Shown: positions 6,501-62,639, counted from the stretch's first letter. The stretch is 64,000 nt of DNA from Clostridiales bacterium (GCA_015069485.1 SVIM01000004.1:4385-68384), one strand, 5' to 3'. Program-made: numbers and translations. Notes: generated by a model from the letters alone, not told the origin.

Positions 6501-6509
6501 AAGGCAATA

Positions 6510-11388: not shown

Positions 11389-11452
11389 ATTCTTTAAGGC
11401 GAACGCCTAAATTTTTAGAGCGAAGCGTCTAAATTAAAGTTAAGGAGAAATT

Positions 11453-20186: not shown

Positions 20187-20250
20187 ATAAAAAATCCCTT
20201 AAAAATTCAATTAGTTGGAGGATATTACGCCACCAATTTACTTTAACATT

Positions 20251-24751: not shown

Positions 24752-25555
24752 ATGAAAAACTTAAACTACTCCCCTCAACATTTAATTTATTTAAAAAAAA
24801 TAAAGCGCAATAAAATTTTCGTAAACTTTATGCGCTCGTTTATTTTAGTTTTGATTTTGGGCGTGTGGGAACTTTGCGCAGCCTTTAAAATTATCGACCC
24901 GTTTATAACCAGCTCCCCTTCAAGGGTGGTTAAAACGATTATCGACCTATATTTAAACGGCTCGCTGTTTTACCATATCGGCGTAACGCTTTTCGAAACG
25001 CTTTTAGGCTTTATTATTGCAATAGTTGCGGGATATTCCGTGGCCATTTTGCTTTGGATGAGTAATTCTGCACGAAAAATTTTCGAGCCGTATATAGTAG
25101 TTTTAAACTCTTTACCTAAAATTGCGCTTGGCCCTTTGATTATAATTTGGATTGGCACGGGCTATACGGCGATAATTTTTATGACTATACTCGTCGCCGT
25201 TATAGTTTGCATTATGAACACCTTAACAGGATTTTGCTCGGTTGATTCTACCATGCTGACTTTAATGAGGTCTATGGGCGCAAGCAAAATTTTAACGCTT
25301 AAAAAATTAATTATCCCAGCCTCTATTCCTGCCCTTATGAACACCTTAAAGGTTGCGGTTGGGCTTGCTTGGATAGGCTCGATTATGGGCGAATATATCG
25401 TTTCGCGCGCAGGGCTTGGGTATTTAATCGTTTACGGCGGTCAGGTTTTTAAGCTTGACTTGGTTATGACCGCTACCATTATTTTATGCGCCTTAGCAGG
25501 AGCAATGTACGGTGTAGTTGCACTTTTGGAAAAAAGACTTTTAAAGCTTTACTAA
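24752..25555 (+). CDS. ABC transporter permease (NitT/TauT family)
   Basis: 267 aa with about 6 TM segments. It is the third gene of the SBP-ATPase-permease set. Confidence 0.85.
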   Translation: MKNLNYSPQHLIYLKKIKRNKIFVNFMRSFILVLILGVWELCAAFKIIDPFITSSPSRVVKTIIDLYLNGSLFYHIGVTLFETLLGFIIAIVAGYSVAILLWMSNSARKIFEPYIVVLNSLPKIALGPLIIIWIGTGYTAIIFMTILVAVIVCIMNTLTGFCSVDSTMLTLMRSMGASKILTLKKLIIPASIPALMNTLKVAVGLAWIGSIMGEYIVSRAGLGYLIVYGGQVFKLDLVMTATIILCALAGAMYGVVALLEKRLLKLY

Positions 25556-25708
25556 AGCAAAAAAATAAAATTATAAACGGCGCAAAAAACCGCGCAAAAT
25601 GCCGTTAGTTAAAGCATATTACCCCATCAATTTAATATTTTACGGTTTGTGGGGCAGCATTTTTAGGTTGCCCCACGGCTTAATTTTTAACCTTAAAATA
25701 AACGCAAT

Positions 25709-28502: not shown

Positions 28503-29726
28503 CTATATTAGCGTTGCAATAGCGCCATCTTTATATAATTGGGTGGCAACTATGTTGCAAATACTGCCGGATTGAATTATATTTTTTGCGTAAATTTTTA
28601 TATAATTTTGGCTGTATCCCCAGCTGTATTCGCCATCAGTTTCTTCGAAAATAACCGAAAGATTTTTACCTAAAAAGCTTTTAATATACCTCTCTTCCGC
28701 GGCTTTGGCAACGGATAAAAGCTTATGCAATCGCTCGCTTTTAATTTTAGCGTCAATATCCTTTAATTTAAACGCCACCGTTCCTTCCCTTGGCGAAAAA
28801 GCAAACGCGTGCACGCGGGCAAAACCTACCTCGTCGATTATAGATAGGCTTTGGTTAAAATCCTCTTCCGTTTCTCCGCAAAAGCCTGCAATAATATCGG
28901 TAGTAATTGCCGCGTCGGGGAAAAATCGATAAATTAATTTGCACTTTTCAATATATTCTTCACGGGTGTATTTACGGTTCATTGCCCTTAAAGTATTGCT
29001 AGAGCCACTTTGTAGCGAAAGGTGAAATTGGGGGGCGAAATCGGGCAAGCTTTTAAGCGCTTTTAAAAATTGGGGCGATACTATGCGGCATTCAATGCTA
29101 CCCAAGCGCACCCTTTTGTTTACTTTATTAAGGGCAAGAATAAGGTCGGTTAAGGTTTCTTCCCCCTGCGACCACGCCGAAATGTTAATGCCCGTTAAAA
29201 CCACTTCTGGGCAATTCGTCGCCGTAATTTCTTCTAAAATATCTTCTTTTGTTCTGCTTTGCACCCTACCCCTTAAATAGGGAATTATGCAATAGGAGCA
29301 AAAGTTGTTGCAACCGTCTTCTATTTTTATAAACGCCCTTGTTTTAACCTGTTTAGGAAAGGGCAAGGAGGAATATTGCTTTTGCATAAGCCCGAATTTT
29401 TGTGCTACCGCCAAAAGCACCTGCTCCTTTTTGTTTGCGCCACAAATAAAGGTTACGCCCTGCTTGTTAAACTGCTCGCTGTTTTTTTGCGACGCGCACC
29501 CACACACGAAAATTTGCGCTTCGCTATTAAATTTTTTTACCCTTGCGATTAATTGTCGGCTCTTTTTTTCCGCCTCTTTAGTAACGGCGCAGGTGTTTAA
29601 AACGAATATATCTGCGGGGGAAAGCTTGTCGGAAACGGTAAAGCCCATATCCTCCAACGCCGCCATAATGGAAGCCGATTCTACTTCGTTAACCTTACAG
29701 CCAAGGGTAAATACTACTGCCTTCAT
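28503..29726 (-). CDS. mtaB: tRNA (N6-threonylcarbamoyladenosine) methylthiotransferase MtaB (radical SAM MTTase)
   Basis: Radical SAM motif CNNFCSYCIIPYLRG and an N-terminal MTTase domain. The gene order prmA-rsmE-mtaB matches Bacillus yqeT-yqeU-yqeV. Confidence 0.88.
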   Translation of the reverse strand: MKAVVFTLGCKVNEVESASIMAALEDMGFTVSDKLSPADIFVLNTCAVTKEAEKKSRQLIARVKKFNSEAQIFVCGCASQKNSEQFNKQGVTFICGANKKEQVLLAVAQKFGLMQKQYSSLPFPKQVKTRAFIKIEDGCNNFCSYCIIPYLRGRVQSRTKEDILEEITATNCPEVVLTGINISAWSQGEETLTDLILALNKVNKRVRLGSIECRIVSPQFLKALKSLPDFAPQFHLSLQSGSSNTLRAMNRKYTREEYIEKCKLIYRFFPDAAITTDIIAGFCGETEEDFNQSLSIIDEVGFARVHAFAFSPREGTVAFKLKDIDAKIKSERLHKLLSVAKAAEERYIKSFLGKNLSVIFEETDGEYSWGYSQNYIKIYAKNIIQSGSICNIVATQLYKDGAIATLI

Positions 29727-30454
29727 TTAAGCTCTCCCAGCGCGAACATAACCAGCGAGCAAGTGGCTATTGCCGCAGTTTCGGCGCGGAGTATGCGCTT
29801 GCCAAGCGTTATTCCGTCAAAGCCGTAACCGTTTTTTGCAAGCAAAAATTCTTCTTCACAAAAACCGCCTTCGCTACCTACGACTATTGCCGTAGAGCCG
29901 TTAAGTACGGAAATATCCGTATCGGAAGAGGTTGCAAATTCGCAAGCAAAAAGCTTGTTATTATAATCTTGCGCCGACTTTAACGCTTCGTCGAATTTAT
30001 TAAAGTATTCCACCTTGGGCGCAACCTGCCTTAGGCATTGCTTTGCCGCTTCCTTGGCAACCTTATTTAAGCGTTCAAGCTTGTTTTCGTTCATATAAGC
30101 AGAGCAATATTTAGAATTAAATACGCCTATTTTATGCACGCCAAGCTCGGTAGCCTTTTGCACGACGAGCTCGGTTTTATCGCCCTTTAACGCACCGCAT
30201 AAAAGGTAAACTTCAGTCAACGCCTCGCGCGAGGTTTCGTTTACCCCCACAATATGCGCCAACAAACGCTTTTTTTCGATTTTTGCAACTATGGCGGAAA
30301 ACTCTTTACCGCTATTATCTAACAAAACTATTTCTGCGCCTTCTTCAAGCCTTAAAACGGTTTTTGCGTGGGTAAATTCTTCCCCTTCTAAAAAGATCTC
30401 GCAATTATCGGGGTATTCAATTTTGTCTATAAAAAATCTTTTAGGGGCACTCAT
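29723..30454 (-). CDS. rsmE: 16S rRNA (uracil1498-N3)-methyltransferase RsmE
   Basis: 243 aa. It has an N-terminal PUA-like region and a C-terminal SPOUT-type region (IVVGSEGGF..E). Its ends overlap prmA and mtaB by 4 nt each. Confidence 0.88.
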   Translation of the reverse strand: MSAPKRFFIDKIEYPDNCEIFLEGEEFTHAKTVLRLEEGAEIVLLDNSGKEFSAIVAKIEKKRLLAHIVGVNETSREALTEVYLLCGALKGDKTELVVQKATELGVHKIGVFNSKYCSAYMNENKLERLNKVAKEAAKQCLRQVAPKVEYFNKFDEALKSAQDYNNKLFACEFATSSDTDISVLNGSTAIVVGSEGGFCEEEFLLAKNGYGFDGITLGKRILRAETAAIATCSLVMFALGELK

Positions 30455-32472: not shown

Positions 32473-32498
32473 TAATTGAGCCATATATGGGGGTTAAT
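32473..32498 (+). repeat. Copy of the recurrent AT-core palindrome element; overlaps the hydrogenase stop codon
   Basis: TAATTGAGCCATATATGGGGGTTAAT. The hydA-like stop (32494-32496) lies inside GGTTAAT. The hairpin ATATCCGCGT/ACGCGGATAT at 32422-32454 is adjacent. Confidence 0.55.
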
Positions 32499-34008
32499 CC
32501 ATTTTTGTTAAGCGTTCGGCAACCTCTAACAAGTCGTTTGAAGGAAGCTTAGGCTCGCTGTTTTTTACAACCTGACCTACTAAAATTTTAGCCTTTTCGG
32601 GGGGGATAATCGTGCCTACGCCGGCAACGCATCCACCGAGACAGCCCATACCTTCTATCATGCTTCCGTTAAGCTTGCCCGCCTTTGCGAGATTAAGCAT
32701 CATTTTGCAATCTGAAAGCCCTTCGGCGTGATGAATAGTAACGGTCGTTTCGGGGTAGAATTCGTTTATTGCACAGCGTATTGCCTCGGCTACGCCACCT
32801 GCCACGGCATAACCTCTGCCTGCGCCTGAAGCGTTAGTGTTTACGACGGATTCTTCTAATCCTTCCAAATCAATTTCCTTTGCGTCAAAAATTCCGGCAA
32901 GCTCTTCAAAGGTTATAACGAAGTCCACGTGGCTTCTTACCGCCTTTCTGGAGGCTTCTAATTTTTTAGCGGCGCAAGGACCGATAAACACTACCCTCGC
33001 TTCGGGAACTTCTTCCTTAATTTTACGCGCCGTTGCAACCATAGGCGTAAGCTCGCTTGAAACCTCGGATGCTATCGTGGGGAACTGCGATTTTATAAGC
33101 GAAGCCCAAGCAGGGCAGCAGCTTGTAAGCAAGAAGGGCATTTTACCCGTTTTTACGGTGTTTACGTAATGGTGTGCTTCTGCAATACAGCCCATGTCTG
33201 CGCCTTCGGCTACCTCGTACATATCGGCAAAGCCAAGCTTTAAAAGTGCAGTTTTTATTTTGCCCAAGTTAACCTTTACGCCAAACTGACCTGCTATTGC
33301 AGGAGCAACTGCGGCAATTACCTTATCGCCCTTTTTAATTGCCTGAATAAGCTGGAATATTTGCGATTTATCGGCAATAGCGCCAAAGGGACAAGCCGAC
33401 ATACATTGACCGCAAGCAACGCATTTATCGTTGTCTATGCTCGCCCTGCCAAATTCGTCTGTGGATATGGCCTTTATACCACACGCGCTTGCGCAAGGGC
33501 GAACCTTATGAGCAATAGCGTCGTAAGGGCAAGCCGCTTTGCACTTTCCGCATTTTATACATTTTTCCTTATCGATAAACGACTTGCCGTTTACCACCGA
33601 AATTGCGCCTTTAGGACAAGCCTTTATGCAATAGTGAGCAACGCAGTTACGGCATTGATTAGTAACCTCGTACTCGTTTTCAGGGCACTTGTCGCACGCA
33701 GAGGGAATAACCTGCATTAAAGGCGGTTCGTAATACTTATCGGAAACGTTGCTTTTCGTTACGCCCGAGGTTATATGAACTGGCTTATTTGCAGGACGAA
33801 GGGAAAGCCCCATTGCAAGGCGCACCCTTTCTGCCGCTATTTGCCTTTCTCTATAAATACTTTCCCTATATTTAGGCTCTTCGTCGGGAGTTATAGTGTA
33901 TGGAATTGCTTCTATATCGCTTTTTATATCCTTTGACTTGTAAGCAACCCTTGCAACTTCAGCAAAAATTTTTCTTCTTATTTCCGTTACGACACTTTGT
34001 GATTTCAT
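32494..34008 (-). CDS. [FeFe]-hydrogenase catalytic-subunit-like protein with an N-terminal multi-[4Fe-4S] region
   Basis: H-cluster motifs: LTSCCPAW, GPCAAKKLE, EGMGCLGGCVAGVG. N-terminal ferredoxin motifs: CIKCGKCKAACP, CVACGQCMSACP. I prefer ATG 34008 (MKSQSVV) with GAGG 6 nt upstream, over the track start 34062. Confidence 0.85.
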   Translation of the reverse strand: MKSQSVVTEIRRKIFAEVARVAYKSKDIKSDIEAIPYTITPDEEPKYRESIYRERQIAAERVRLAMGLSLRPANKPVHITSGVTKSNVSDKYYEPPLMQVIPSACDKCPENEYEVTNQCRNCVAHYCIKACPKGAISVVNGKSFIDKEKCIKCGKCKAACPYDAIAHKVRPCASACGIKAISTDEFGRASIDNDKCVACGQCMSACPFGAIADKSQIFQLIQAIKKGDKVIAAVAPAIAGQFGVKVNLGKIKTALLKLGFADMYEVAEGADMGCIAEAHHYVNTVKTGKMPFLLTSCCPAWASLIKSQFPTIASEVSSELTPMVATARKIKEEVPEARVVFIGPCAAKKLEASRKAVRSHVDFVITFEELAGIFDAKEIDLEGLEESVVNTNASGAGRGYAVAGGVAEAIRCAINEFYPETTVTIHHAEGLSDCKMMLNLAKAGKLNGSMIEGMGCLGGCVAGVGTIIPPEKAKILVGQVVKNSEPKLPSNDLLEVAERLTKMD

Positions 34009-34122
34009 AAAAAACCTCACTAAATTCACACACATTATAGCACACTTTATTTTTTGTTGCAATAGTAAAGCTATAAATTTTTAATTAATATATTTTTATT
34101 GATTACAACCGTGCAAATTTAA

Positions 34123-34178: not shown

Positions 34179-35369
34179 ATGCTTATTAATTTTTTGGTTA
34201 AAAGATATACTAAAGACGGAAAGGATATAAACTGCCCCGAGGTGCGCGCAAAAATAGGCAAAGCTTCGGGCATAGTAGGCATCATATGCAATATTTTGCT
34301 GTTTGCGGCAAAGCTGTTTGCAGGCATAATTTCTTTCTCGGTTGCCATTATTGCAGATGCAATTAACAATATTTCCGACGCTTCGAGCAATATCGTAAGC
34401 TTTTTCGGCTTTAAGCTTGCAAGCCGTCCTGCCGATAAGGAGCACCCCTACGGCCACGGCAGATACGAATACCTTGCCGCCCTAACCGTCGCCCTTTTAA
34501 TTATGGTTATAGGCGTTGAGCTTATGCGCACGGGCATAGAAAAGATTATTGCACCGCAAAACCTCGTCGTTTTAAACGCCGTAACTATTGCCATTATGTG
34601 CGCTTCCATTATTATTAAGCTTTGGCTATGCTTATTTTATTCAAGACTTGGCAAAAAGATTAATTCCAACGCGCTTATAGCCGCCTCCGCCGATTCGAGA
34701 AACGACGTAATCGCAACCTCCGTCGTTCTTGTAACCGCAATAATTTCCCATTTTATAGAAATTGAATTAGACGGTTATATGACGGTTGCCGTGGCTTTAT
34801 TCGTGTTATATAGTGGTTTTTGCTTGGTTAAGGATACGCTTAATCCACTACTTGGAAAAGCGCCCGACGAAGAGCTTTGCGAAGATATTAGATTGAGGAT
34901 ATTAGCCCACGAAGGCGTTTTAGGCACGCACGATTTAATGGTGCACGACTATGGTGTAGGAAGGCAATTTGCCAGCGTTCATATAGAGGTTGACGCAGAT
35001 TTAGGTATAGTTGCCGCGCACGAAATTTGCGACGCAATAGAGCGTGATTTTTTAGAAAGCGATAATCTGCACATGGTCGTTCATTTAGACCCTATTGCCC
35101 ACGACGACGAAGAAGGCAAAATAAGAAATTTTATTTTGGGAAAGGTAAAGAATTTCAACGGTAATCTTACTATTCACGATTTAAAAATTTTGCGTTGCAA
35201 CGAAAAAAGAAAGTGCTTTTTTGACTGCGTTATTCCAAAGGAGTTTGAAGGCGACGAAGCCGAGCTAGTTGAAAAAATTAAGATGGCAATTAAGCTTGAC
35301 CAGCCTGACTTGGAGTGCGAAATTACCATAGATAAAAACTTTGCCGCGCTCCCTCACCAAAAGCGATAA
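34179..35369 (+). CDS. Cation diffusion facilitator (CDF) family metal efflux transporter
   Basis: 396 aa. The TM domain carries the AIIADAINNISD and SRNDVIAT motifs. A C-terminal cytoplasmic domain (HDLMVHDYG...VHLDP) is present. Confidence 0.9.
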   Translation: MLINFLVKRYTKDGKDINCPEVRAKIGKASGIVGIICNILLFAAKLFAGIISFSVAIIADAINNISDASSNIVSFFGFKLASRPADKEHPYGHGRYEYLAALTVALLIMVIGVELMRTGIEKIIAPQNLVVLNAVTIAIMCASIIIKLWLCLFYSRLGKKINSNALIAASADSRNDVIATSVVLVTAIISHFIEIELDGYMTVAVALFVLYSGFCLVKDTLNPLLGKAPDEELCEDIRLRILAHEGVLGTHDLMVHDYGVGRQFASVHIEVDADLGIVAAHEICDAIERDFLESDNLHMVVHLDPIAHDDEEGKIRNFILGKVKNFNGNLTIHDLKILRCNEKRKCFFDCVIPKEFEGDEAELVEKIKMAIKLDQPDLECEITIDKNFAALPHQKR

Positions 35370-35410: not shown

Positions 35411-35440
35411 TATTTGCGCCATATAGGCTAGGCAATTAAA
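35411..35440 (+). repeat. Copy (degenerate) of the recurrent AT-core palindrome element
   Basis: TATTTGCGCCATATAGGCTAGGCAATTAAA. It lies 42 nt after the CDF stop and is followed by the hairpin AGGGAGTAAAAA/TTTTTACTCCCT (35446-35470). Confidence 0.45.
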
Positions 35441-35911: not shown

Positions 35912-37060
35912 ATGAAAGCTATAGTTAAAGGCTTTGGTAAAATTATTGCGCTTTTTTTGGCGTTGTTTACTTGCTTTATAACGGCGTATAGCGTATGCAC
36001 GGATGCCCATAAGAGCACCGTTTGCGCACGCGCCGAAACACAAAGCGAGCCTAAAAGGGTTGTAGGGTATTTACCTAACTGGTCGTACAAGGCGTACGAA
36101 GATATTGATTTTTCTGCGCTGACGCATATTAATATTGCTTTTTGCAACTTAAATTCGAGCGGGGAATTTTATAGCGGAATACCCGACGAGGATATGTATG
36201 CGTTAGTAAATAAAGCGCACGCGCACGGCGTTAAAATTATGGCTGCGCTTGGTGGCGGGGGCTATGGCGACCCCTACCGCGCGTTAATTGCAGGCACGGA
36301 AAAAATTAATTTGTTAAACGGGAAGTTGGAGCATTTTTGCGAAAAGTACTCGCTTGACGGAATTGACCTTGATATTGAGCTTGCTTCTTCTGACAGTATT
36401 TGGAATTATTACGGAGAGTGGGTTAGCGCACTTAGAAGTATTTGCAACAGGCACGGTTGGATTTTAAGCACGGCAACGGCTCAATGGGTGGCAGGCACCG
36501 TAACGGCAGAAACCTTTGCGCTTTTTGATTTTGTAAGCGTTATGGCGTACGACAACGACGGTTGGAATTATAATTCCCACTCCTCATACGATTTTTCAAT
36601 AGAGTGTTTAAATTATTTTAATATTCAAAAGGAAATACCCAAAGAAAATTTAGTGCTTGGCGTTCCATTTTACGGAAGGGGCTATACGAGTAGCGGTGCG
36701 CTTGACTGGAATTCATATCTTTCGTTTAAGGATTTAATAAGCGCCGATATAGAGAATTACGACAGGGACGAATATAACGGCATAGCCTATAACGGAGCAA
36801 GCACTATGCAAAAAAAATGCGAGCTTGCAAAAGAATACGGCGGAATTATGATTTGGGAAATTACCTTGGACGCGCAGGGAGAATATTCTTTATTAGACTT
36901 AATAAAGCAAGAATTAATACCTGCCCCTAAAGACGAATTACAACAAAACGACGGCGTAAAAAAAGATGAATTTTTAGTTTATATAATTATCGGGGTAAGC
37001 GCAATAGCCGTTATTGCTTTGGCGGTTATTTTAATAGCGAAAAGGATTAAAAAAAGATAA
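35912..37060 (+). CDS. Glycoside hydrolase family 18 (chitinase / endo-beta-N-acetylglucosaminidase-like), with N-terminal signal and C-terminal TM anchor
   Basis: The catalytic DxxDxDxE motif appears as LDGIDLDIE. N-terminal hydrophobic signal: GKIIALFLALFTCFITAYS. C-terminal TM: FLVYIIIGVSAIAVIALAVILIA, followed by KRIKKR. Confidence 0.85.
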   Translation: MKAIVKGFGKIIALFLALFTCFITAYSVCTDAHKSTVCARAETQSEPKRVVGYLPNWSYKAYEDIDFSALTHINIAFCNLNSSGEFYSGIPDEDMYALVNKAHAHGVKIMAALGGGGYGDPYRALIAGTEKINLLNGKLEHFCEKYSLDGIDLDIELASSDSIWNYYGEWVSALRSICNRHGWILSTATAQWVAGTVTAETFALFDFVSVMAYDNDGWNYNSHSSYDFSIECLNYFNIQKEIPKENLVLGVPFYGRGYTSSGALDWNSYLSFKDLISADIENYDRDEYNGIAYNGASTMQKKCELAKEYGGIMIWEITLDAQGEYSLLDLIKQELIPAPKDELQQNDGVKKDEFLVYIIIGVSAIAVIALAVILIAKRIKKR

Positions 37061-37067
37061 AAAATTA

Positions 37068-37093
37068 TAATTGCCCCATATATATGCCCTAAA
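37068..37093 (+). repeat. Copy (degenerate) of the recurrent AT-core palindrome element
   Basis: TAATTGCCCCATATATATGCCCTAAA. It lies 8 nt after the GH18 stop, just before terminator 37113-37141. Confidence 0.45.
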
Positions 37094-37112
37094 CAGTTAA
37101 AGTGAAATTAAA

Positions 37113-37961: not shown

Positions 37962-37990
37962 TTGACAAATAGATATAATTAAAATATAAT
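37962..37990 (+). promoter_or_regulatory. Consensus sigma-70 promoter for the DUF368 gene
   Basis: TTGACA (37962-37967), 17 nt, TATAAT (37985-37990). Confidence 0.6.
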
Positions 37991-38010
37991 TGTCGTATAC
38001 GGAGCTTAAA

Positions 38011-38880
38011 ATGAAAGATTTTTTAAAATTGTTTTTATGCGGCGCAGCCATTGGCACGGGCATGATTATTCCAGGGGTTAGCGGTGGTACTATTGCCGTT
38101 ATAATGCGAATTTACGATAAGCTAATAAACGCAATAACTTCGCTTAAATCGGACTTTAAAAACAGCGTAAAATTTTTATTTCCGATTTTGCTTGGCGCAA
38201 TAGTCGGCATTGGGGTAACTTTTATACCGTTAAAGCTTGCGCTTGAATACGCGCCCCTTCCCACCGTTTTACTTTTCGTTGGTTTTATGCTTGGAAGCCT
38301 GCCCGATATTATAGGCGAAGCCAAACAGCTTGGCATTAAAGGCGTGGACTGGTTTTTGGTTATAGCCACGCTTTCCATTACGGTAGGAATTTGCTTTATA
38401 CCCGGGCTTGGAAGCGTTGACCTTTCTGCAACGATGGCTTGGTGGCAATATATACTGCTGTTTTTGGTAGGGCTACTCGCTTCGTGCGCGTTGGTTATTC
38501 CCGGTATAAGCGGATCTATGCTACTTTTAATTTTAGGTTATTATCAGCCTATTTTTAACACCATTACCCTGTTGTTTACCGGCGATTTTTTGCACAGTTT
38601 TATAGTGCTTGCCGTTTTCGGTTTAGGTATAATTGTAGGATTTTTTACCGTAGCCAAAATTATGCAATATTTATTGAATAAATTTGAAAGGGCTACCCGT
38701 TGGGCAATTTTAGGGTTTGTAATAGGCTCTGTCCCCGCAATTTTAATAACCTTTGATTATGCTAATTCCCCCCTTAATATACCCCAAATAATAGTTGCAA
38801 TTGTACTTTTAATTTTGGGTTGCGCCGTATCGTATTATATTTCTTACCTAGGAAAAAAGCGAACAAAATTAGACGAGTAA
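38011..38880 (+). CDS. DUF368 family membrane protein (family recently linked to undecaprenyl-phosphate recycling)
   Basis: The duplicated signature IPGVSGGTIAV and IPGISGSMLLLILGYY is present. I prefer ATG 38011 (GGAG 6 nt upstream) over the TTG at 37990 used in the track. Confidence 0.85.
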   Translation: MKDFLKLFLCGAAIGTGMIIPGVSGGTIAVIMRIYDKLINAITSLKSDFKNSVKFLFPILLGAIVGIGVTFIPLKLALEYAPLPTVLLFVGFMLGSLPDIIGEAKQLGIKGVDWFLVIATLSITVGICFIPGLGSVDLSATMAWWQYILLFLVGLLASCALVIPGISGSMLLLILGYYQPIFNTITLLFTGDFLHSFIVLAVFGLGIIVGFFTVAKIMQYLLNKFERATRWAILGFVIGSVPAILITFDYANSPLNIPQIIVAIVLLILGCAVSYYISYLGKKRTKLDE

Positions 38881-38909: not shown

Positions 38910-38937
38910 TAGTTGCGCCATATATGGCGGTTAATTA
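38910..38937 (+). repeat. Best-preserved copy of the recurrent AT-core palindrome element
   Basis: TAGTTGCGCCATATATGGCGGTTAATTA. It contains the perfect 14-nt palindrome CGCCATATATGGCG (38916-38929). Confidence 0.6.
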
Positions 38938-38968
38938 AAAAACGCAGTGCTGTTGCACTGCGTTTTTA
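38936..38968. terminator. Bidirectional terminator between the DUF368 gene and rpoC
   Basis: ACGCAGTGC (38942-38950) pairs with GCACTGCGT (38955-38963). AAAAA and TTTTT flank it. Confidence 0.75.
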
Positions 38969-38975: not shown

Positions 38976-41900
38976 TTATTCTTCAACGGTTTCTTCAATT
39001 TTAAGGTCGGGTGCGGTTACAATGCTATTAAAGTTAGAATTGATAACGGGGGACATATTTTTATAGTCCTTAACGCCCGTACCTGCAGGGATAAGCTTAC
39101 CGATAATAACGTTTTCTTTAAGGCCCATAAGGGGGTCAACCTTATTTTTGATTGCCGCGTCGGTTAATACCCTTGCAGTTTCCTGGAAGGATGCTGCAGA
39201 CAAGAAGGAATCGGTGGAAAGGGCTGCTTTAGTAATACCTAAAAGCACACGCTTTTGAAGCGCGGGAGTACCGCCGTTTTCGATTGCCTTGGTATTTTCT
39301 TCTTCAACGGTGAACATATCAACCGTTTCGCCGGGAAGAAGCGAGGTTGAGCCTGCGGATTCAATACGAACCTTTCTGAGCATTTGACGAACGATAATTT
39401 CTACGTGCTTATCGTTAATATCTACGCCCTGTGAACGGTATACGGACTGAACTTGCGTTAAGATATAGTCTTGAACGCCCTTAACACCGGAAATTCTTAA
39501 AATATCCTGAGGATATACAGAACCGGTATTAAGCTGGGTGCCGGGAGCAACTACGTCGCCATCCTTAACCTTAAGCTCTGCGTTGAAGGGAAGAACGTAT
39601 TCCTTCTTCTGTTCGCCGGTGATTTGATCTTTAACGATAATATGCTTCATATTGTCGCTATCGTCTAAGCGAACTACGCCGGAAACTTCGCAAAGGGTTG
39701 CGCAACCCTTGGGTTTACGCGCTTCGAAAAGTTCTTCGACACGGGGAAGACCTTGGGTAATGTCGCCCGTTGCTGCGATACCGCCGGTGTGGAAGGTACG
39801 CATCGTAAGCTGAGTACCGGGTTCACCGATGGACTGCGCCGCAATTACGCCGACAGCTTCGCCAGCCTGTACGGGAGTGTTGGTTGCCATGTTTTTACCA
39901 TAGCACTTTGCACATACGCCGTAGCGGGAGGTACAGCTGAATACCGAACGGATAGAAACGGCTTCTACGCCGGCATCTACTACTGCTTTTGCAAGCTCGT
40001 CGGTAACGAATTCGTTCATTGCAACGATAATATTGCCGTCCTTATCCTTAACGTCTTCTGCTACGAATCTGCCTTGGATTCTATCTTCAAGTCCTTCAAT
40101 AACTTCACCGTTAGGGCCGATTATTGACCTAACTACCATACCGCGAGGCTTTTTGCTGCCTGCCATACAGTCATCTTCACGAACGATAACGTCTTGAGCA
40201 ACGTCAACTAAACGACGGGTTAAATAACCGGAGTCCGCAGTTTTTAACGCCGTATCTGCAAGACCTTTACGGCCACCGTGAGAGGAGATGAAATATTCGA
40301 GAACGGAAAGACCTTGTCTAAAGCAAGACTTAACGGGAACTTCGATCTTTTTACCTTGGGGGTTAACCATTAGGCCACGCATACCGGAAAGCTGCTTCAT
40401 CTGGTCGATAGAGCCACGTGCACCCGAGTTTGCCATCATCCAAATAGGATTGAACTTATCGAGTGATTTTTTAAGCGCGTCGGTAACTTGGTTGGTTGCG
40501 TTATCCCAAGCGTCGATAACTGCGTTATATCTTTCTTCTTCTCTTAAAAGACCTCTTTGATATTTCTTTTCGATTTTGAATACCTTTTCTTCCGTTTCTT
40601 TAATAATTTCCGTTTTTGCTTCGGGAATATGCATATCGAATACGGAGGTAGTAATTGCGCCTACCGTGGAATATTTGTAGCCGAGAGCCTTGATTTTATC
40701 AAGGATAACAGCCGCCTTAGGCGCGCTACCCGTTTTGAAGCAACGGGCTACGATTTTGCCAAGCTGCTTTTTACCAACTGCAACTGCGCCACCCAAGAAT
40801 TCGTAAGAAATTTCGTATTTAAGGTAATCTTCTTTATTAACTCTTTTAACCAAGCCTAAATCCTGAGGCATTTCGTTATTGAAGATAATTCTGCCTACGG
40901 TGGTTTTTACAAGGCCTTGTACCGTTTCTCCGTAGAAGGGAGAGTTTTTATCGTCGATAGTAACGGTACGGCGAACGTAAATTTCGTCCTGCATATGAAT
41001 ATGCTTGGTTTGGTAAGCCATCATGGCTTCGTCCTCGGAGATATATTTGCCGGGGATATATTTTTCTGCGCCGTCGTCGTAGGGCTGGCATTCGTAATAT
41101 CTGTCGCCAACGTACTTATAGAACTTGCCTTCCTCTCTTCTAATAATAGTAAGGTAATATGCGCCGATTACCATATCCTGTGCAGGCTGCATAACGGGCT
41201 TACCGTCGGAAAGCTTTAAGATGTTGTTGGTGGAAAGCATTAAGAATCTTGCTTCTGCCTGAGCTTCGATGGAAAGAGGTACGTGAACTGCCATCTGGTC
41301 GCCGTCGAAGTCAGCGTTGAACGCCGTACATACTAAGGGGTGAATTTTAATTGCTCTGCCTTCAATAAGCACGGGCTCGAAGGCCTGAATAGAAAGACGG
41401 TGCAAGGTAGGCGCACGGTTTAAAAGAACGGGGTGTTCTTTAATTACGCCTTCTAATACGTCCCAAACGAAGGGCTTAGCCTTTTCAACGGTGCGCTTTG
41501 CGCTTTTAATGTTGTGGCATTGACCGCTTTCAACAAGCTTTTTCATTACGAAGGGCTTGAAAAGCTCGATAGCCATTTCCTTGGGAAGACCGCATTGATA
41601 CAACTTAAGCTCGGGACCAACTACGATAACCGAACGGCCGGAATAGTCAACACGCTTACCGAGCAAGTTTTGACGGAAGCGACCTTGCTTACCGCGAAGC
41701 ATTGCGGAAAGAGATTTTAATTCCCTGTTAGAAGGACCGGATAACGCCTTGCCTCTTCTACCGTTATCGATAAGGGCGTCAACCGCTTCCTGTAACATTC
41801 TCTTTTCGTTTTTAACGATCATATCGGGAGCGCCGAGCTCCATCATTCTCTTTAAACGGTTGTTGCGGTTGATAACTCTACGGTATAAGTCGTTGATATC

Positions 41901-42674
41901 AGAGGTTGCAAATCTGCCACCGTCAAGCTGAACCATAGGACGAATATCGGGGGGAAGCACGGGAAGAACGGTTAATACCATCCACTCGGGGCGGTTGCCA
42001 CTCTTTCTAAAGGATTCCAACACTTCGATACGCTTAACGGCCTTAACGCGCTTTTGACCTGCTTGATTATTTTCGATAATCTTTCTGGTTTCTTCGCATT
42101 CCTTATCTAAATCAACAGCCATTAAAAGCTCGCGAATTGCTTCTGCGCCCATACCAACCTTAAGGCCGGTTACTTCGCTTTCGCCGTATTTTTCTTCGAT
42201 TTCTCTAAGTTCTTTATCGTTGATAACCTGCTTGTATTCAAGAACGGGAACGGTACCGGGGTTAATTACTACGTAAGCCGCAAAGTAAATAACCTGCTCT
42301 AACGCCTTAGGGCTCATATCAAGCACTAAGCCTATTCTGGAAGGAACGCCCCTAAAATACCAAATGTGGGAAACGGGAGCAGCTAATTCAATATGTCCCA
42401 TTCTTTCCCTTCTAACCTTTGCACGGGTAACTTCTACGCCGCACTTTTCGCAGGTGATACCCTTATAACGAATACGCTTATATTTACCGCAATGACATTC
42501 CCAGTCCTTCATAGGTCCAAAAATTCTTTCGCAGAATAAACCGTCGCGTTCGGGTTTTTGCGTTCTGTAATTTATAGTTTCGGGCTTGGTTACTTCGCCC
42601 TTGGAAAGTTCCCTGATTTTTTCGGGAGAAGCCACGCTGATTTTAATTGAACAAAAATCGTTTAATTCAAACAC
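38976..42674 (-). CDS. rpoC: DNA-directed RNA polymerase subunit beta'
   Basis: 1,232 aa. It contains the zinc-binding [23 protein letters not shown] and the catalytic [12 protein letters not shown]. Confidence 0.98.
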
Positions 42675-47403: not shown

Positions 47404-48447
47404 TTGGAAAAAGTAAAACGCGAAAACAAATACGGGCTTAAGCTTTCAAACTTTATAATGCTTATAATAGCCGGGGCAATTAACGCCGTGGGCGTAACTT
47501 TATTGCTTGCCCCGCTTAATTTATACGATAGCGGTATTTCGGGGTTATCTATGTTTATCGATATGATTCTACCCTTCGAAACCTCGATGCTGTGGCTATT
47601 TTTAATCGTATTAAACTTCCCCATATTTTTATTTGGGCTTAAAATGCAGGGCGTAGCCTTTACCATTTATTCCATTTTTGCAATTACTATGTATTCACTT
47701 TTTGCAGCGCTGTACCAAAATATTTTACCCTTGTTTATCACTTTTACGGAAGGTGAATCGATTATAGCGGGCGGTGAAATAATTTTATGCGCCGTATTCG
47801 GCGGCGGGCTTTCGGGCGTGGGAAGCGGTATGACTATTCGCTACGGCGGAGCTTTGGACGGAATTGAACAGCTGGCGGTAATTTTTGCAAAAAGGCTTAA
47901 CCTTACGGTAGGAAACTTCGTAATGATTTTTAACGTAATTTTATATATTGTTATCGGAGCGTACTTCCAGTCGTTTATTCTTCCCCTTTATTCTATCGTT
48001 GCTTACTTCGTAGCGTCCAAGGCGGTGGACTTTATTTCACAGGGGATTGACCAAGCAAAGGGCGCGCTTATTATTACTAACCATTACGACGAGGTTGCGG
48101 CGGCGCTATCCTCGGAATTCGGTAGGGGACTTACCGTTTTAGACGCAAAGGGATATTATTCAAACACCCACAAAAGCGTAATATATTGCGTTGTAAACCG
48201 CTTTCAGGTGGCAAAATTAAGGAACATTATCGCCGCTACCGACAAGCGAGCCTTCGTTACCATTATGGAAATAGCCGACGTATTTGGCACAAGCGTAAAA
48301 TACAGCCGTGCTGACGATAAGAAGAGAAGAAAAAAATTAAAGGAACAAAAAGCCGAGCACAAGGCGGAAATTAAAGCTGAAAGGCTACAAAAAAGGGAAG
48401 AACAAATTTCAATTAACGAATTTTTAACGGACGGTAATAAAAAATGA
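47404..48447 (+). CDS. YitT family membrane protein (with C-terminal DUF2179-like domain)
   Basis: About 5 TM segments, then a soluble domain LIITNHYDEVAAALSSEFGRGLTVLDAKGYYS, then a basic tail. The start is uncertain. TTG 47404 has AGGAG 7 nt upstream, whereas the track uses TTG 47386. Confidence 0.8.
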   Translation: MEKVKRENKYGLKLSNFIMLIIAGAINAVGVTLLLAPLNLYDSGISGLSMFIDMILPFETSMLWLFLIVLNFPIFLFGLKMQGVAFTIYSIFAITMYSLFAALYQNILPLFITFTEGESIIAGGEIILCAVFGGGLSGVGSGMTIRYGGALDGIEQLAVIFAKRLNLTVGNFVMIFNVILYIVIGAYFQSFILPLYSIVAYFVASKAVDFISQGIDQAKGALIITNHYDEVAAALSSEFGRGLTVLDAKGYYSNTHKSVIYCVVNRFQVAKLRNIIAATDKRAFVTIMEIADVFGTSVKYSRADDKKRRKKLKEQKAEHKAEIKAERLQKREEQISINEFLTDGNKK

Positions 48448-49586
48448 TAACCGCAATTATTTGCGCTGCCGGCAAGGGCGAAAGGGCGGGCTTTAACAAG
48501 AACAAGGTTTTAGCACCCCTTTTTGGCGAGCCGGTGCTTTACCTTACATTAAAAAAATTTAATATTGAGTACATTGACGAGATAATAGTTACCTGTTCCC
48601 CCCAAGATATGACGGAAATATCGGCAATTTGCAAGCCCTTTAACGCCAAAGTCGTTTTAGGGGGAGCGACCAGGACGGAAAGCGTTTTTTGCGCCCTTAA
48701 GGAAGCGTTAGGCGATATCGTTTTAATACACGACGGCGCAAGACCTTTCGTTTCGGAAAAAATTATTTTGGATTGTATAAAAAGCGTAAAAGCGCACGGA
48801 AGCGGAATTTGCTGTACGCCCTTGACGGATACTGCAATAATTTCAAATAGCGGAAAAACCGTTGATAAAGCCGTAGACAGAAGCACACTTTTTGCCGTAC
48901 AAACACCGCAGGGCTTTTTGACGAAAGATATTATTAGGGCGCATACTATGGCGCAATTAAGCGGTTTAACCTTTACTGACGACAGCGCAATTTATTCTAA
49001 ATACATTGCCCCTGCACGCTTATTTGAAGGCGAAAGCGCAAACAAAAAACTTACCTTTAAAAACGATTTTTACACCCTTCCCCCACTTAATATTTCCGGC
49101 GATATAAAAATTGGCTACGGCGTTGACACGCACGCTTTTGGTAGCGAAAACAATTTCGTTACGCTTTGCGGAGAAAAAATTGAGTGCGATAATGGCCTTA
49201 TTGCCCACAGCGACGGCGACGTTGCAGTACACGCGGTTATGGATGCGATTTTATCGGGCGCGGGGCTTAAGGATATTGGGCACTACTTCCCCGACACGGA
49301 CGAAAAATTTAAGGGCGCAAGTAGCCTTAAAATGCTTGAAAAGGTTGTTGAATTAGCGTTAGATAAGGGATATTGCGTGGGCAATTTAAGCTTGACCATA
49401 CAAGCGGAAAAACCTCGACTTGCAAAACACATTGATAAAATGGTAAAAAATTTGGCTACCGTTTTACAGATTGAAGATAAAAATATAACGGTTTCGGCAG
49501 GCACCTGCGAAGGCTTGGGCTTCGTTGGCGAAGGCTTGGGAATATGCGCGACCGCCGTAGCTTGCCTTAAAACGGCGACGGTTTAA
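48444..49586 (+). CDS. ispDF: Bifunctional IspD/IspF (MEP cytidylyltransferase / MEcPP synthase)
   Basis: IspD N-terminus: ITAIICAAGKGERAG. IspF half: GYGVDTHAF...HSDGDVAVHA... Confidence 0.93.
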   Translation: MITAIICAAGKGERAGFNKNKVLAPLFGEPVLYLTLKKFNIEYIDEIIVTCSPQDMTEISAICKPFNAKVVLGGATRTESVFCALKEALGDIVLIHDGARPFVSEKIILDCIKSVKAHGSGICCTPLTDTAIISNSGKTVDKAVDRSTLFAVQTPQGFLTKDIIRAHTMAQLSGLTFTDDSAIYSKYIAPARLFEGESANKKLTFKNDFYTLPPLNISGDIKIGYGVDTHAFGSENNFVTLCGEKIECDNGLIAHSDGDVAVHAVMDAILSGAGLKDIGHYFPDTDEKFKGASSLKMLEKVVELALDKGYCVGNLSLTIQAEKPRLAKHIDKMVKNLATVLQIEDKNITVSAGTCEGLGFVGEGLGICATAVACLKTATV

Positions 49587-49643: not shown

Positions 49644-51008
49644 ATGGCAAAAACTACTACATTGTTTGCTTGCACGGAGTGTGGCGCAACAAGCCCGAGA
49701 TGGCTTGGCAAATGCCCCGCGTGCGGAAAATTTAATACTATGGCTGAAGAAATAATTTATAATAAAGCCACGGCAAACGATAAAAACACCCGCACATATG
49801 GCGCAGCGAAGGCAAAACCTCTTTCGCAAATCGCCTTTGAAAAAGTTACGAGAACTCCTTCAGGAATTTCGGAATTCGACACGGTTTTAGGGGGCGGAAT
49901 TGTAAACGGCTCGCTCGTTTTACTCGGTGGCGACCCCGGTATTGGCAAATCGACGATTCTTACGCAAATAGCGGCACACCTTTCAAGCAACCATAAGGTT
50001 TTATACTTTTCGGCAGAGGAAAGCTGTTATCAGGTTAAGATGCGCGCGGAGCGTCTTGGTTTAAAATCGGATAACCTTTTGCTTATTAATTCCACTTGCA
50101 TTGACGAGCTTGAAAACGAATTAGACGGCGTGGAGTTTTGCGTTATCGACTCTATTCAAGCCGTTTACACGGACGATTTATCTTCTTCTGCAGGCTCGGT
50201 TGGGCAGGTTAGAGAGTGTGCCTCCAAGCTAATGCGAATTGCAAAAAGCAAGGGAATAACCTTTTTTATAATAGGGCACGTAACCAAGGAAGGCGCGCTT
50301 GCAGGCCCTAAGGTTTTAGAGCATATTATGGATACCGTGCTTTATTTTGAAGGGGAAAACCAAGAAAATTTTAGAATTTTACGCGCTGTTAAAAATAGGT
50401 TTGGCAACGTTTCGGAAGTAGGTGTTTTTGAAATGACGGGCGAAGGAATTATCGCCGTTACCGACTATTCGGGCATATTTTTATCGGAAAGCCGAGGCGA
50501 GGAAGCAGGCTCGGTTGTAACGCCTGCGCAAACCGGCAATAGGTGTATGAACGTAGAAATTCAAACGCTTATATCAAAAACCTCGTTTGGGCAACCGAGA
50601 AGGATGCCCTTGGGCGTTGACTATAATAAGTTGGTACTACTTTTGGCAGTTTTAGATAAGAGATGCGGAATTAATTTATCGACCTACGACGTTTACTTAA
50701 ACGCGATGGGCGGAATTAAGCTTAGCGAGCCTGCAACTGATTTGGCAGTATGCGCAGCGCTTGCCTCCGCTTACTTTGGACAACCGATTGACAAATACAC
50801 GGCTGCCTTTGGCGAGGTTGGTTTAACGGGCGAGGTAAGGGCGGTATCGTATGCAGAAAAGCGTGTTGCCGAGTGCGTAAAAATGGGATTTAAAAAGGTT
50901 TTAGTGCCCGCTAAAAATATGAAGTCTATGACGAAGTTTATGGACAAAATAAAAATCGTTCCCGTTTTATACTTAAATACAATGATTAAAAATTTGTTTA
51001 AAGATTAA
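49644..51008 (+). CDS. radA: DNA repair protein RadA/Sms
   Basis: Zinc finger CTECGATSPRWLGKCPACGKFNT, Walker A GGDPGIGKSTIL, KNRFG motif, and a Lon-like C-terminal domain. Confidence 0.96.
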   Translation: MAKTTTLFACTECGATSPRWLGKCPACGKFNTMAEEIIYNKATANDKNTRTYGAAKAKPLSQIAFEKVTRTPSGISEFDTVLGGGIVNGSLVLLGGDPGIGKSTILTQIAAHLSSNHKVLYFSAEESCYQVKMRAERLGLKSDNLLLINSTCIDELENELDGVEFCVIDSIQAVYTDDLSSSAGSVGQVRECASKLMRIAKSKGITFFIIGHVTKEGALAGPKVLEHIMDTVLYFEGENQENFRILRAVKNRFGNVSEVGVFEMTGEGIIAVTDYSGIFLSESRGEEAGSVVTPAQTGNRCMNVEIQTLISKTSFGQPRRMPLGVDYNKLVLLLAVLDKRCGINLSTYDVYLNAMGGIKLSEPATDLAVCAALASAYFGQPIDKYTAAFGEVGLTGEVRAVSYAEKRVAECVKMGFKKVLVPAKNMKSMTKFMDKIKIVPVLYLNTMIKNLFKD

Positions 51009-51122: not shown

Positions 51123-51151
51123 TTAACCGCCATATACCTTACTGCGCTAAT
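51123..51151 (-). repeat. Copy (reverse orientation, degenerate) of the recurrent AT-core palindrome element
   Basis: The reverse complement reads ATTAGCGCAGTAAGGTATATGGCGGTTAA. Confidence 0.4.
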
Positions 51152-52211: not shown

Positions 52212-52282
52212 TAATTAACCGCATACTATGCGCCATCTATTAGGATTTAGAGCATGCTATGCCCCATCTATTAGGCTTAATA
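52212..52282 (-). repeat. Two tandem 31-nt variant copies of the recurrent element downstream of ftsY
   Basis: GCATACTATGCGCCATCTATTAGGATTTAGA (52221-52251) and GCATGCTATGCCCCATCTATTAGGCTTAATA (52252-52282). TTAATTAACC flanks them at 52212-52220. Confidence 0.5.
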
Positions 52283-52293: not shown

Positions 52294-53190
52294 TTATACG
52301 ATATTATCTATAAAATCTTCAGGGTTAAAAAGCTCTAAATCTTCAAGCTTTTCGCCAACGCCTGCAAACATTACGGGTATGCCTAATTCCCCGCAAAGAG
52401 AAATTACGAAGCCACCCTTTGCCGAGCCGTCGAGCTTGGTTAAAACTATTCCGTCAAGCTCTACCGCCTCGTCAAACACTTGCGCTTGATTTACCGCGTT
52501 GTGGCCCGTGGTTGCATCTAAAATTAACAGCTTATAGAAATTCGCCGTGGGATATTCCCTTTCCACCACCCTCGACATCTTTTTAAGCTCTTCCATAAGG
52601 TTCGCCTTAACGTGCAATCTGCCTGCCGTATCTATTATTACGACGTCCGTTTTTTTGGCTTTTGCCGAAGATATAGCGTCATATACCACAGCAGAAGGGT
52701 CGCTACCCTCCTCGTGCTTAACTATTCTAACGCTTGCCCTTTCTGCCCAAACGGTTAACTGGTCAGCCGCGGCAGCACGGAAGGTATCGGCGGCAGCCAC
52801 CGTAACGGACTTTTTGTTTTTTAAAAAATAATTTGCAAGCTTTCCGACGGTAGTAGTTTTTCCAACGCCGTTAACGCCGACGAGCATTATAACGGCAGGA
52901 TATTTAATTTCGGGAATTTCCGCTTCGGTAAGCTTTTCCTCCAAAACGTCTTTTAAAAGGTCGATTACGAATTGCTTGTCTTTTATTTTATCGTGCTTTG
53001 CTTCGGCGCGAATTTCTTCAACGACTTCCGTTGCCGTGTTAATTGATATATCTGCCTCTATTAAAATTTCTTCAAGCTCGTCGTAAAATTCATCCCCGAT
53101 TTTATTTTTTGAAAAAAGGTTTGATAACGCCTTACCTAAACCTTCGCGCGTTTTTTTTAGCGCGTTTGCAATTTTAGAAAAAAAACCCAT
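52294..53190 (-). CDS. ftsY: Signal recognition particle receptor FtsY (short form, NG domain only)
   Basis: 298 aa. GTPase motifs GVNGVGKTTT, DTAGR and TKLDG are present. Confidence 0.95.
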   Translation of the reverse strand: MGFFSKIANALKKTREGLGKALSNLFSKNKIGDEFYDELEEILIEADISINTATEVVEEIRAEAKHDKIKDKQFVIDLLKDVLEEKLTEAEIPEIKYPAVIMLVGVNGVGKTTTVGKLANYFLKNKKSVTVAAADTFRAAAADQLTVWAERASVRIVKHEEGSDPSAVVYDAISSAKAKKTDVVIIDTAGRLHVKANLMEELKKMSRVVEREYPTANFYKLLILDATTGHNAVNQAQVFDEAVELDGIVLTKLDGSAKGGFVISLCGELGIPVMFAGVGEKLEDLELFNPEDFIDNIV

Positions 53191-53262: not shown

Positions 53263-53292
53263 TTAAATTACCCCTTATATATGTGGCAACTA
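53263..53292 (-). repeat. Copy (reverse orientation) of the recurrent AT-core palindrome element immediately after the smc stop
   Basis: The reverse complement reads TAGTTGCCACATATATAAGGGGTAATTTAA. The hairpin CCTTCCCTAA/TTAGGGAAGG (53221-53244) follows it on the minus strand. Confidence 0.5.
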
Positions 53293-61812: not shown

Positions 61813-62639
61813 TTTATTTTTAACGCCGATAAAAGCTTTTCGTCGGGGTAAAATTCGGGAGTACCGATGCTTCGGTTACCTTCTTTAAAATGCGTATCCG
61901 ACCCCCCTGTAACAAATAGCGAAAACCTTTCGGCAAGCTCCTTAAAATATGCCGTTTCCCCAATAGTATGCCCCGAATAACACGCTTCTATGCCACCCAA
62001 GCCACAGTTTATAAGGCGTATTATAAGCTCGTTTTTATTTTCGTTCGAAAGGGAAATTCTTCCGGGGTGCGCAAGCGAAGCCACCCCACCGCAATCAGTT
62101 ATAATTTTTACCGCCTCTTCCGGCGTGGGACGGCACAAATCGGAATATGCGCACTTGCCCATATTTAAATAATCGACGTAAAATTTATAAGGGCTGCTTG
62201 AATAACCCTTTCTGCTCGCCGCGCGCGCAACGTAGGACGAGTGCAGGGGCGAGGTTTTAATTTTGCGCTCCCTTTCAACGTCTTGTAAGGTTAAATGTAT
62301 TCCGCGCCTTGCAAGCTTTTTTAAGCTATCCTTAACGCGCTCCTCCGCGCCGAAAATACAACGGCTGTAATATTGTTTAAAGCGTTCGCAATCCGTGTTT
62401 AGGTTATAGCCTAAAACGTGTACCTTTACGCCCTCGTAGGCAGAAATTTCTATACCGTCAACGGCACATATCCCTGCATCAATCGCCAAATTTTTAATAA
62501 TTTTACTTGCGCCCATACAGTCGTGGTCGGTTACGGAAAGCATTTTAACGCCGTTTTGCTTTGCAATACTTATTACTTCTTCCGGGGTAAGCAAGCCGTC
62601 TGAATACAATGTGTGAATATGCAAATCAGCACGCATCAT
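61809..62639 (-). CDS. PHP domain metal-dependent phosphoesterase (TrpH/YciV-like)
   Basis: ADLHIHTLYSDG...SVTDHD. It overlaps both neighbours by 4 nt. Confidence 0.85.
   Translation of the reverse strand: MMRADLHIHTLYSDGLLTPEEVISIAKQNGVKMLSVTDHDCMGASKIIKNLAIDAGICAVDGIEISAYEGVKVHVLGYNLNTDCERFKQYYSRCIFGAEERVKDSLKKLARRGIHLTLQDVERERKIKTSPLHSSYVARAASRKGYSSSPYKFYVDYLNMGKCAYSDLCRPTPEEAVKIITDCGGVASLAHPGRISLSNENKNELIIRLINCGLGGIEACYSGHTIGETAYFKELAERFSLFVTGGSDTHFKEGNRSIGTPEFYPDEKLLSALKIN

Follow-up and report, generated by a model that had tools for sequence, protein, structure and literature searches.

What is a short DNA word doing hundreds of times in the chromosome of an uncultured gut Clostridia bacterium, and what decides where it stands? 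The question was raised by a spacer copy at position 38910 of a 64,000-nt stretch (Clostridiales bacterium, GCA_015069485.1 SVIM01000004.1:4385-68384; hereafter the window), one of eight copies listed in a preliminary description of this DNA. The organism is represented by a metagenome-assembled genome (MAG), and among named records those of 'uncultured Clostridia bacterium' and Candidatus Scatosoma are closest to it (AsnS identity 72-76%). We followed the word through the whole assembly (G000; 1.52 Mb in 46 contigs, with the window at C39:4385-68384) and through relatives (G004, G005, G007 and others). The element is real and far more numerous than the eight copies first listed. Its copies lie in both orientations and mostly inside genes, stand in helically phased A/T, form arrays at the replication origin and are nearly missing from almost a quarter of the assembly. 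Such a pattern would suit the sites of a putative architectural DNA-binding protein acting on the origin-proximal chromosome, a reading that we favour without quite giving it an even chance.

Number, placement and anatomy of the word

A weight matrix iterated over the whole G000 assembly settled into a stable 30-column model. At 10 bits or more this model gave 506 matches, compared with 28 in reversed, 41 in Markov-3 and 27 in Markov-5 controls, and at 18 bits or more it gave 273 matches against 1 in controls; the count is thus well above what base composition predicts, with about 30 chance matches per genome expected at the lower threshold. Once overlaps were removed 496 copies remained, 24 of them within the window. 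The exact consensus first proposed matches at 32473-32498 and 38910-38935 and gave 0 matches in 100 shuffles. Of the loci in the preliminary description, six score 17-30 bits (32473, 35411, 37070, 38910, 52214 and 53267), 14206 (8.6 bits) and the second unit at 52246-52282 (9.0 bits) are marginal, and 51123-51151 (-14 bits) holds no copy. The statement that no described element has this consensus held up: two element loci run against Rfam had no match, and the papers searched described neither this word nor a similar regional one from Clostridia.

Placement relative to genes departs from the first impression that all copies are intergenic. Against a set of 1,273 ORF-based (open reading frame) genes covering 88% of the assembly, 335 of the 496 copies (68%) lie wholly inside ORFs, as do about 15 of the 24 in the window. 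These ORF copies fall into all six frame-and-orientation classes (42-70 each) and are spread fairly evenly along genes. Convergent spacers have 1.46 copies per kb and tandem spacers 1.20; coding sequence (0.33) and divergent spacers (0.28) have fewer. The mixed orientation described earlier extends to the whole genome, with 172 copies on the majority gene strand and 167 on the opposite one; in tandem spacers 73 copies share the orientation of the upstream gene and 57 oppose it. The closeness to stop codons remarked on before is real, with a median of 43 nt between stop codon and motif. A terminator-like hairpin, said to accompany every copy, occurs within 60 nt of 18% of non-divergent intergenic copies and of 16% of random positions in the same spacers, and is not a property of the element.

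Taken together, placement, frames, orientation and spacer classes exclude a promoter and an oriented RNA element. Promoters of sigma-70, sigma-54-like and Bacteroidetes type were rejected individually on unfit hexamer spacings and on the depletion of copies in divergent spacers, and a promoter for a phage-type RNA polymerase was rejected on random orientation. The word bears by eye what we take to be a resemblance to T3/K11-type promoters; a search for the single-subunit RNA polymerase (PF00940) gave no match, and none in any control genome either, and is uninformative.

The word is asymmetric and 26-34 bp long, with the consensus gcgT-TAATTrsGGCATATwwnGGGGGCAATT, or ncnT-TAaTTnnGGCATATttngGGGgcAATT over positions -4 to +29. 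T0, A10-T11-A12 and A23-A24-T25 are almost invariant, G or C suffices at positions 5-9 and 16-22, and both arms are often G-rich on the same strand. Three A/T blocks (T-AATT, C-ATA-T and C-AAT-T) stand about one helical turn apart, with G/C-rich spacers of free sequence between them. Complementary arms around the core had been taken as a selected feature. This is true of a few copies only: mutual information over 260 copies gave no arm-arm covariation, only dependencies between neighbouring positions, so the arm complementarity seen in the two best window copies does not extend to the family, which has no general hairpin. Arms that are mostly G-rich on the same strand cannot pair.

The A/T oscillation continues outside the word with an 11-bp period to at least ±130 nt (at least 250 bp in all). 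The phasing belongs to the word specifically: flanks of copies have a Fourier power of 2.6-5.2 at 11 bp, compared with 0.0-0.6 at control CATAT, CAATT and ATA-N10-AAT sites. For 134 isolated copies with their ±150 nt in a single ORF the values are 2.9-4.9, the noise floor being 0.7 and its maximum 1.2. Tandem arrays have a period of 31-32 nt, or three helical turns, so that every copy faces the same side of the helix. It is double-stranded DNA, not RNA, that carries the signal. Array periods themselves vary, being 32 nt at G004:C3:248967-249144 and about 75 nt downstream of rpoC in G046 (L114), and this suggests local copy expansion in some spacers.

Distribution along the chromosome and among lineages

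The contigs of G000 are bimodal. Those empty of the word (C1, C6, C20, C24, C26, C35, C36, C40 and C45) amount to 355 kb, 23% of the assembly, and carry 2 copies at 18 bits or more where 82 are expected; the other 1.17 Mb carries 271. The empty contigs hold single-copy core genes (uvrA, mfd, dnaE, polA, carB and ispH-rpsA), and the single-copy UvrA encoded on C36 is 83-89% identical to its orthologues in the genus, so these contigs are not contamination. A chimeric MAG was rejected on this evidence, together with the emptiness of the uvrA neighbourhood in three other species and a border that falls inside one contig of G004. This contig (C1, 355 kb) has six copies in its first 15.4 kb and then none at 15 bits or more over 340 kb of co-oriented genes, with one match of 14.2 bits; all other matches in G004 are on C3, C5-C11 and C14. 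In G007 and G028 the uvrA neighbourhood is also empty or nearly so, and G007 has long empty stretches on C1, C2 and C4.

Synteny places the empty G000 contigs mainly at 250-347 kb of G004:C1, whereas the motif-rich G000 contigs C3, C27 and C13 map to 39-209 kb of the same contig, where G004 is motif-free. Blocks rich in one species and empty in the other indicate that position, not the gene, decides. Rich-rich, rich-free and free-free blocks do not differ in protein identity between G000 and G004 (60-74%), evidence against recent introgression; a mosaic of introgressed segments was rejected on this ground. Contigs C1, C6, C24, C26, C36, C40 and C45 of G000 are also 2-6 points lower in G+C and separate on a tetranucleotide axis, a contrast not seen in G004 or G007 and one that could mislead binning or contamination checks.

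The origin of replication in G000 is on contig C14, where 8 DnaA boxes occur in 5 kb against 0.9 expected. The interval from 16.7 to 35.7 kb contains the DnaA-box clusters with dnaN, rsmG, yidC, jag, parAB and four canonical parS sites, and at C14:29020-29155 a four-copy tandem array of the word (31-nt period) is interleaved with three DnaA boxes. The arrangement in G004 is similar, with five copies between DnaA-box clusters at C3:230.6-235.2 kb, parB and parS at 232-242 kb, and arrays of 32-nt period further along C3 at 245.4 and 249.0 kb, 10-14 kb off. Motif-free G005 has a normal DnaA-box origin without arrays. The dnaA gene itself starts in the window at 63897 and runs past its end, divergent from recF (62636-63721) across intergenic 63722-63896, and DnaA boxes in the window are at chance level; in G004, dnaA is about 230 kb from oriC on the same contig. 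With box clusters on C14 and none by dnaA, the genus has dnaA separated from oriC and dnaN. Also near the origin are a SpoIIR-like ORF (L215 15686-16294; recognised by eye from its translation) and a YyaC-like gene with Pfam domain DUF1256 (G000:C14:27009-27557), and the genus is therefore probably spore-forming or of spore-former descent.

Gene orientation bears on the opposite pole. Genes on G004:C3, with strands mapped by homology, read towards lower coordinates away from the origin, and the contig is motif-rich for 230 kb. G004:C1 is co-oriented throughout and has its motif-rich end upstream. In G000, genes on motif-free contig C40 change cleanly from the plus to the minus strand at about 14.5 kb, an arrangement that a terminus would be expected to show. 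The empty domain is presumably the terminus-proximal side, its size differing by species. GC skew follows transcription in these genomes and is therefore of no use as a marker of origin or terminus. A dif-like sequence at C40:7323-7350 (TGTTCTCCTAATATATATTATGTAAAAT) has 21/28 matches to what we take to be the B. subtilis dif site. It overlaps a ribosome-binding site in a glycogen operon and is not confirmed as the terminus, nor is the strand switch, 7 kb off.

How copies arise can be seen in ispDF, aligned by codon across 30 species of the genus. The two G000 copies (48934 and 49360) and those of other species differ from orthologous sequence by several substitutions and no indels; at 48934 the encoded peptide is IIRAHTMAQLS in place of the IKKAYELAxxD of orthologues, and the copy at 49360 falls in a variable stretch of the protein. 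Some ispDF copy sites are common to close relatives and most are not. The last ~2.7 kb of rpoC (its 3' part), a gene with 75-82% identity between species, has no copy in 29 species aligned. Substitutions without indels at unshared sites indicate that the word is written by point mutation where the protein tolerates it, with a turnover faster than species divergence.

Range was surveyed with a sequence-only covariance model (R1), the counts in relatives being taken from the matches listed, of which the best 150 were scored. R1 finds the word in 24/24 genus genomes searched, mostly with 30 to more than 150 matches, falling to 14-33 in the clade of G010, G030 and G032 and to just 2-6 in G005, G022 and G025; in 16 other families of the order it gave 0-4. 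Scanned directly over 300 kb and 100 kb, respectively, G005 and G025 gave background counts. The word is genus-specific, with losses. Motif-poor species are nested among rich ones in an rpoC tree, which implies several losses or undetected dialects, and k-mer and gapped-word scans for a dialect in motif-free species were uninformative. The motif-free fraction of the genome is 0%, ~23%, ~50% or 100% according to species.

Candidate explanations

A word without preferred orientation, built for indirect readout with helically phased A/T blocks and unconstrained G/C spacers, with long phased flanks even in genes, avoidance of promoter spacers, arrays in oriC and exclusion from one domain, argues for the site of a bending or wrapping protein of the origin side. 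We accordingly prefer, at a little below even probability, to regard the copies as sites of a putative architectural DNA-binding protein. The word would be the high-affinity bending or wrapping site of this sequence-specific protein, which would act origin-proximally, nucleate on the arrays in oriC and have no sites terminus-proximally. Its job may be a timing or nucleoid-occlusion device like Noc or SlmA, compaction or anchoring of the origin domain, or titration or regulation of replication initiation, for which early-replicated sites and origin arrays would be favoured. The preliminary description had named a binding site for a termination or nucleoid factor; phased A/T, promoter-spacer avoidance, oriC arrays and domain restriction fit the nucleoid half of that suggestion, and termination is unsupported. 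A more far-reaching claim, which we consider possible but rather unlikely, is that in this genus of spore-former-like gut Clostridia, which has small genomes, lacks Noc, mostly lacks HU and presumably lacks SlmA, a new protein-DNA system marks the origin-proximal chromosome with ~500 phased sites, nucleation arrays in oriC and a bare terminus side, and would serve, through an unrelated protein, as an analogue of nucleoid occlusion, origin-domain organisation or initiator titration.

Known systems offer parallels, the Noc and SlmA site sets being closest in function and the gyrase motif in anatomy. The Noc-binding sites (NBS) of B. subtilis and S. aureus and the SlmA-binding sites (SBS) of E. 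coli are scattered, occur in both orientations and are missing from the terminus, as the word is from its empty domain. They are also lineage-specific, like the word, with unrelated proteins doing the same job across phyla. A chromosome has ~70 NBS or 24-52 SBS; Noc and SlmA sites are under-represented in the terminus macrodomain (Ter) and serve as a timing device for division (PMC4726725). NBS and SBS are palindromes of 12-16 bp, whereas the word, known here from sequence alone, is 26-34 bp and asymmetric, with ~500 copies and long phased flanks. In spore formers, RacA/ram and RefZ/RBM have 5-25 sites confined to an origin-centred part of the chromosome. The word differs from these origin-centred sites of sporulating Firmicutes, and the genus has sporulation-type genes by oriC. 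RefZ is named in bioRxiv 10.1101/2022.01.13.476237.

Several observations weigh against an origin-side architectural protein. About 500 strong sites is 7-20 times the number in known domain-specific systems, and a motif-free fraction that varies so much by species is not obviously predicted by a conserved cellular role. No protein partner was found among the single candidates tested. There is no Noc-type second ParB, each genome having one ParB with canonical parS (TetR-type proteins such as SlmA were not searched), and no histone fold was found in G000. HU/IHF (PF00216) was not found in G000 (97% complete) or in 25/31 genus genomes, by a search that matched 9 control genomes. A YpsA-like SLOG gene (PF06908; G000:C14:29325-29780) is separated from the array in oriC by 170 nt and has stayed near the origin throughout the genus, and YpsA inhibits division in Bacillus when overproduced; as a partner it was rejected, since motif-free species have it and motif-rich G007 and G021 lack it. 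With the outcome of the dif search ambiguous, the C40 strand switch and the co-orientation of G004:C1 are the only pointers to the terminus. Finally, all genomes compared are draft MAGs and gene calls are crude ORF calls.

Two related candidates were rejected. The word is not the genus's own parS or NBS, canonical parS lying near parB in motif-rich and motif-free species alike with one ParB in each, and a bacterial histone or HU/IHF is rejected as partner, with none in G000 and HU presence not tracking the motif. A genus nearly devoid of HU would need another major nucleoid protein.

Among alternatives, the one we take most seriously, though we consider it improbable, is that copies are favoured by a universal enzyme that wraps DNA, in the first place DNA gyrase. 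In a variant, they would be curved DNA that holds supercoil loops in place without any protein. Either kind of site would be selected where positive supercoils build up through transcription. Gyrase preference is the role shown for the repetitive extragenic palindrome (REP) family of bacterial interspersed mosaic elements, BIME-2, and for the strong gyrase site of phage Mu. Gyrase sites have a comparable anatomy, with a central part of ~36 bp and two periodic G/C-A/T flanks (~47 bp), 130 bp in all, which the central word with its 11-bp-phased flanks resembles, and the enrichment of copies in convergent and 3' spacers and their absence from the presumed terminus side would also be explained. 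In E. coli, the Ori macrodomain and intergenic BIME-2 have an excess of gyrase cleavage sites and Ter has a deficit (PMC6379681). The E. coli gyrase motif, REP/BIME-2 and IHF-containing BIMEs together display a central part with periodic flanks, which imply that the DNA rests against a protein surface, extragenic 3' preference and Ori over Ter (PMC6379681). However, gyrase is universal, yet sister species G005, G022 and G025 are without copies; phasing to ±130-150 nt exceeds the 130-bp footprint; the mild Ter depletion of E. coli falls far short of a total, sharp-edged absence over 340 kb; and arrays inside oriC would be unexpected. Gyrase sites are dyad-symmetric and too degenerate to stand out, and REPs are palindromic, strictly extragenic and spread by RAYT, whereas the word is strong, mostly intragenic and asymmetric, with conserved single bases (T0, ATA, AAT).

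Less probable still is a 'self' tag like the uptake signal sequences (USS) of Pasteurellaceae or the DNA uptake sequences (DUS) of Neisseriaceae, produced by biased DNA uptake or recombination and thus by molecular drive, not cellular function. The likeness is considerable: hundreds of copies in both orientations, about two-thirds of them in ORFs, made by substitution at poorly conserved positions, enriched also in 3' spacers and lineage-specific, with losses or dialects in relatives and a helically phased A/T flank in USS as well. H. influenzae has 1,471 USS, 65% of them in ORFs at poorly conserved residues (PMC2817400), and USS and DUS share this general pattern with the word (PMC2817400). 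ComEC is present in 29/31 genus genomes. The type IV pilus or ComGA-type ATPase (PF00437), in contrast, is found in just 3/31 (G000, G032 and G044), is missing from most motif-rich genomes and in G000 is encoded on a motif-free contig (C1:18163-19287). We know of no uptake specificity in the Gram-positive Clostridia lineage. USS and DUS are spread genome-wide, the word regionally. An uptake tag gives no account of a sharp-edged 340-kb empty domain of core genes, of dependence on position or of arrays among DnaA boxes, and phasing to ±130 nt is much longer than the USS flank. The two explanations put forward in the preliminary description beside a protein site are very improbable. A transcribed 3'-UTR (untranslated region) hairpin or processing signal working with intrinsic terminators would draw on the several intergenic window copies between stop codon and terminator hairpin, the 43-nt median and the two copies with perfectly complementary arms, but is contradicted by the absence of covariation, the G-rich arms, the mixed orientation, the six frames and 68% of copies in ORFs, and the random level of terminator proximity; regional distribution and oriC arrays would make no sense for an mRNA signal. 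An insertion-spread miniature element (REP with RAYT, or a miniature inverted-repeat transposable element) has equally little probability: it would account for a dispersed short repeat enriched in spacers and for the longer identical flanks shared by C7:37006 and C14:4821, yet copies are mostly intragenic and made by substitution, coding copies lack indels relative to orthologues, no general palindrome, terminal repeats or target duplications occur, and the spacer parts of the word are degenerate. The Y1 (RAYT) transposase (PF01797) was not found in G000, and control genomes matched.

Should the reading as sites of an origin-side architectural protein be true, the word would show a bacterium marking the geography of its chromosome in sequence in a new manner, with a signal that prevails over amino-acid choice in housekeeping genes, keeps its phasing across more than 250 bp and is confined to part of a replichore. 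It would provide a handle on how Clostridia without Noc, and mostly without HU, organise or time their chromosome, and would allow origin, terminus and domain borders to be read in uncultured genomes from sequence only. Genome-wide words written by substitution are not automatically uptake signals, and regional distribution and origin arrays are cheap discriminating tests. Whatever the function, work with MAGs has to reckon with this regional pattern, since within a single genome the motif content of contigs varies sharply and their composition slightly.

Copies in the window

The index copy occupies the spacer between a gene for a VCA0040-like membrane protein, resembling an undecaprenyl-phosphate translocase (37990-38880, plus strand), and rpoC (38976-42674, minus strand), and begins 30 nt past the stop codon of the former. 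Directly after it lies a hairpin (38940-38968), a terminator common to the VCA0040-like gene and the convergent rpoC. The position of this copy is not conserved in 29 related genomes; some of these have, downstream of rpoC, an unrelated copy of their own at a non-homologous site. The copy at 37070 is quasi-palindromic; it had been read on the plus strand, and the matrix favours the minus strand.

Table 1. Matches to the word in the window, with strand and matrix score.
Position	Strand	Score (bits)	Location
11786-11811	+	18.4	In gene 11453-12334
13355-13380	-	11-15	Weaker match, some of this class perhaps chance
20212-20237	+	27.6	Intergenic, between two minus-strand genes
25023-25048	+	24.2	In ABC permease gene, sense
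25606-25631	+	27.9	Intergenic, past ABC permease gene (24752-25555)
28538-28563	-	17.0	In radical-SAM (MiaB-like) gene 28503-29726
29069-29094	-	24.5	Second copy in radical-SAM (MiaB-like) gene 28503-29726
30240-30265	-	23.5	In rsmE-like methyltransferase gene (29723-30454)
32473-32498	+	29.3	Overlapping stop of [FeFe]-hydrogenase-like gene (32494-34062, -)
35411-35436	+	21.1	Intergenic, 42 nt past stop of gene 34179-35369
37070-37095	-	17.6	Intergenic, past GH18 gene (35912-37060)
38765-38790	-	31.3	In VCA0040-like gene, antisense; TATTTGGGGTATATTAAGGGGGGAAT
38910-38935	+	30.4	Index copy; TAGTTGCGCCATATATGGCGGTTAAT
41145-41170	-	11-15	Weaker match, some of this class perhaps chance
48595-48620	-	11-15	Weaker match, some of this class perhaps chance
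48934-48959	-	21.8	In ispDF (48444-49586), antisense
49360-49385	+	28.1	In ispDF, sense
49784-49809	-	19.3	In radA (49644-51008)
52214-52239	-	28.1	Intergenic, downstream of ftsY (52294-53190, -)
52245-52270		9	Degenerate second unit beside the 52214 copy, marginal
53267-53292	-	24.2	Directly after stop codon of smc (53293-56892, -)
57666-57691	-	21.1	In plsX (57588-58628)
61434-61459	-	11-15	Weaker match, some of this class perhaps chance
61954-61979	-	11-15	Weaker match, some of this class perhaps chance
63204-63229	+	11-15	Weaker match, some of this class perhaps chance

Positions 1-11700 of the window (~11.7 kb), which hold a gene for a giant S8 protease and GLUG surface-protein genes, have 0 copies, against some 4 per 10 kb over the remainder of the contig. 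A copy-free stretch of this kind would fit younger or fast-evolving accessory DNA.

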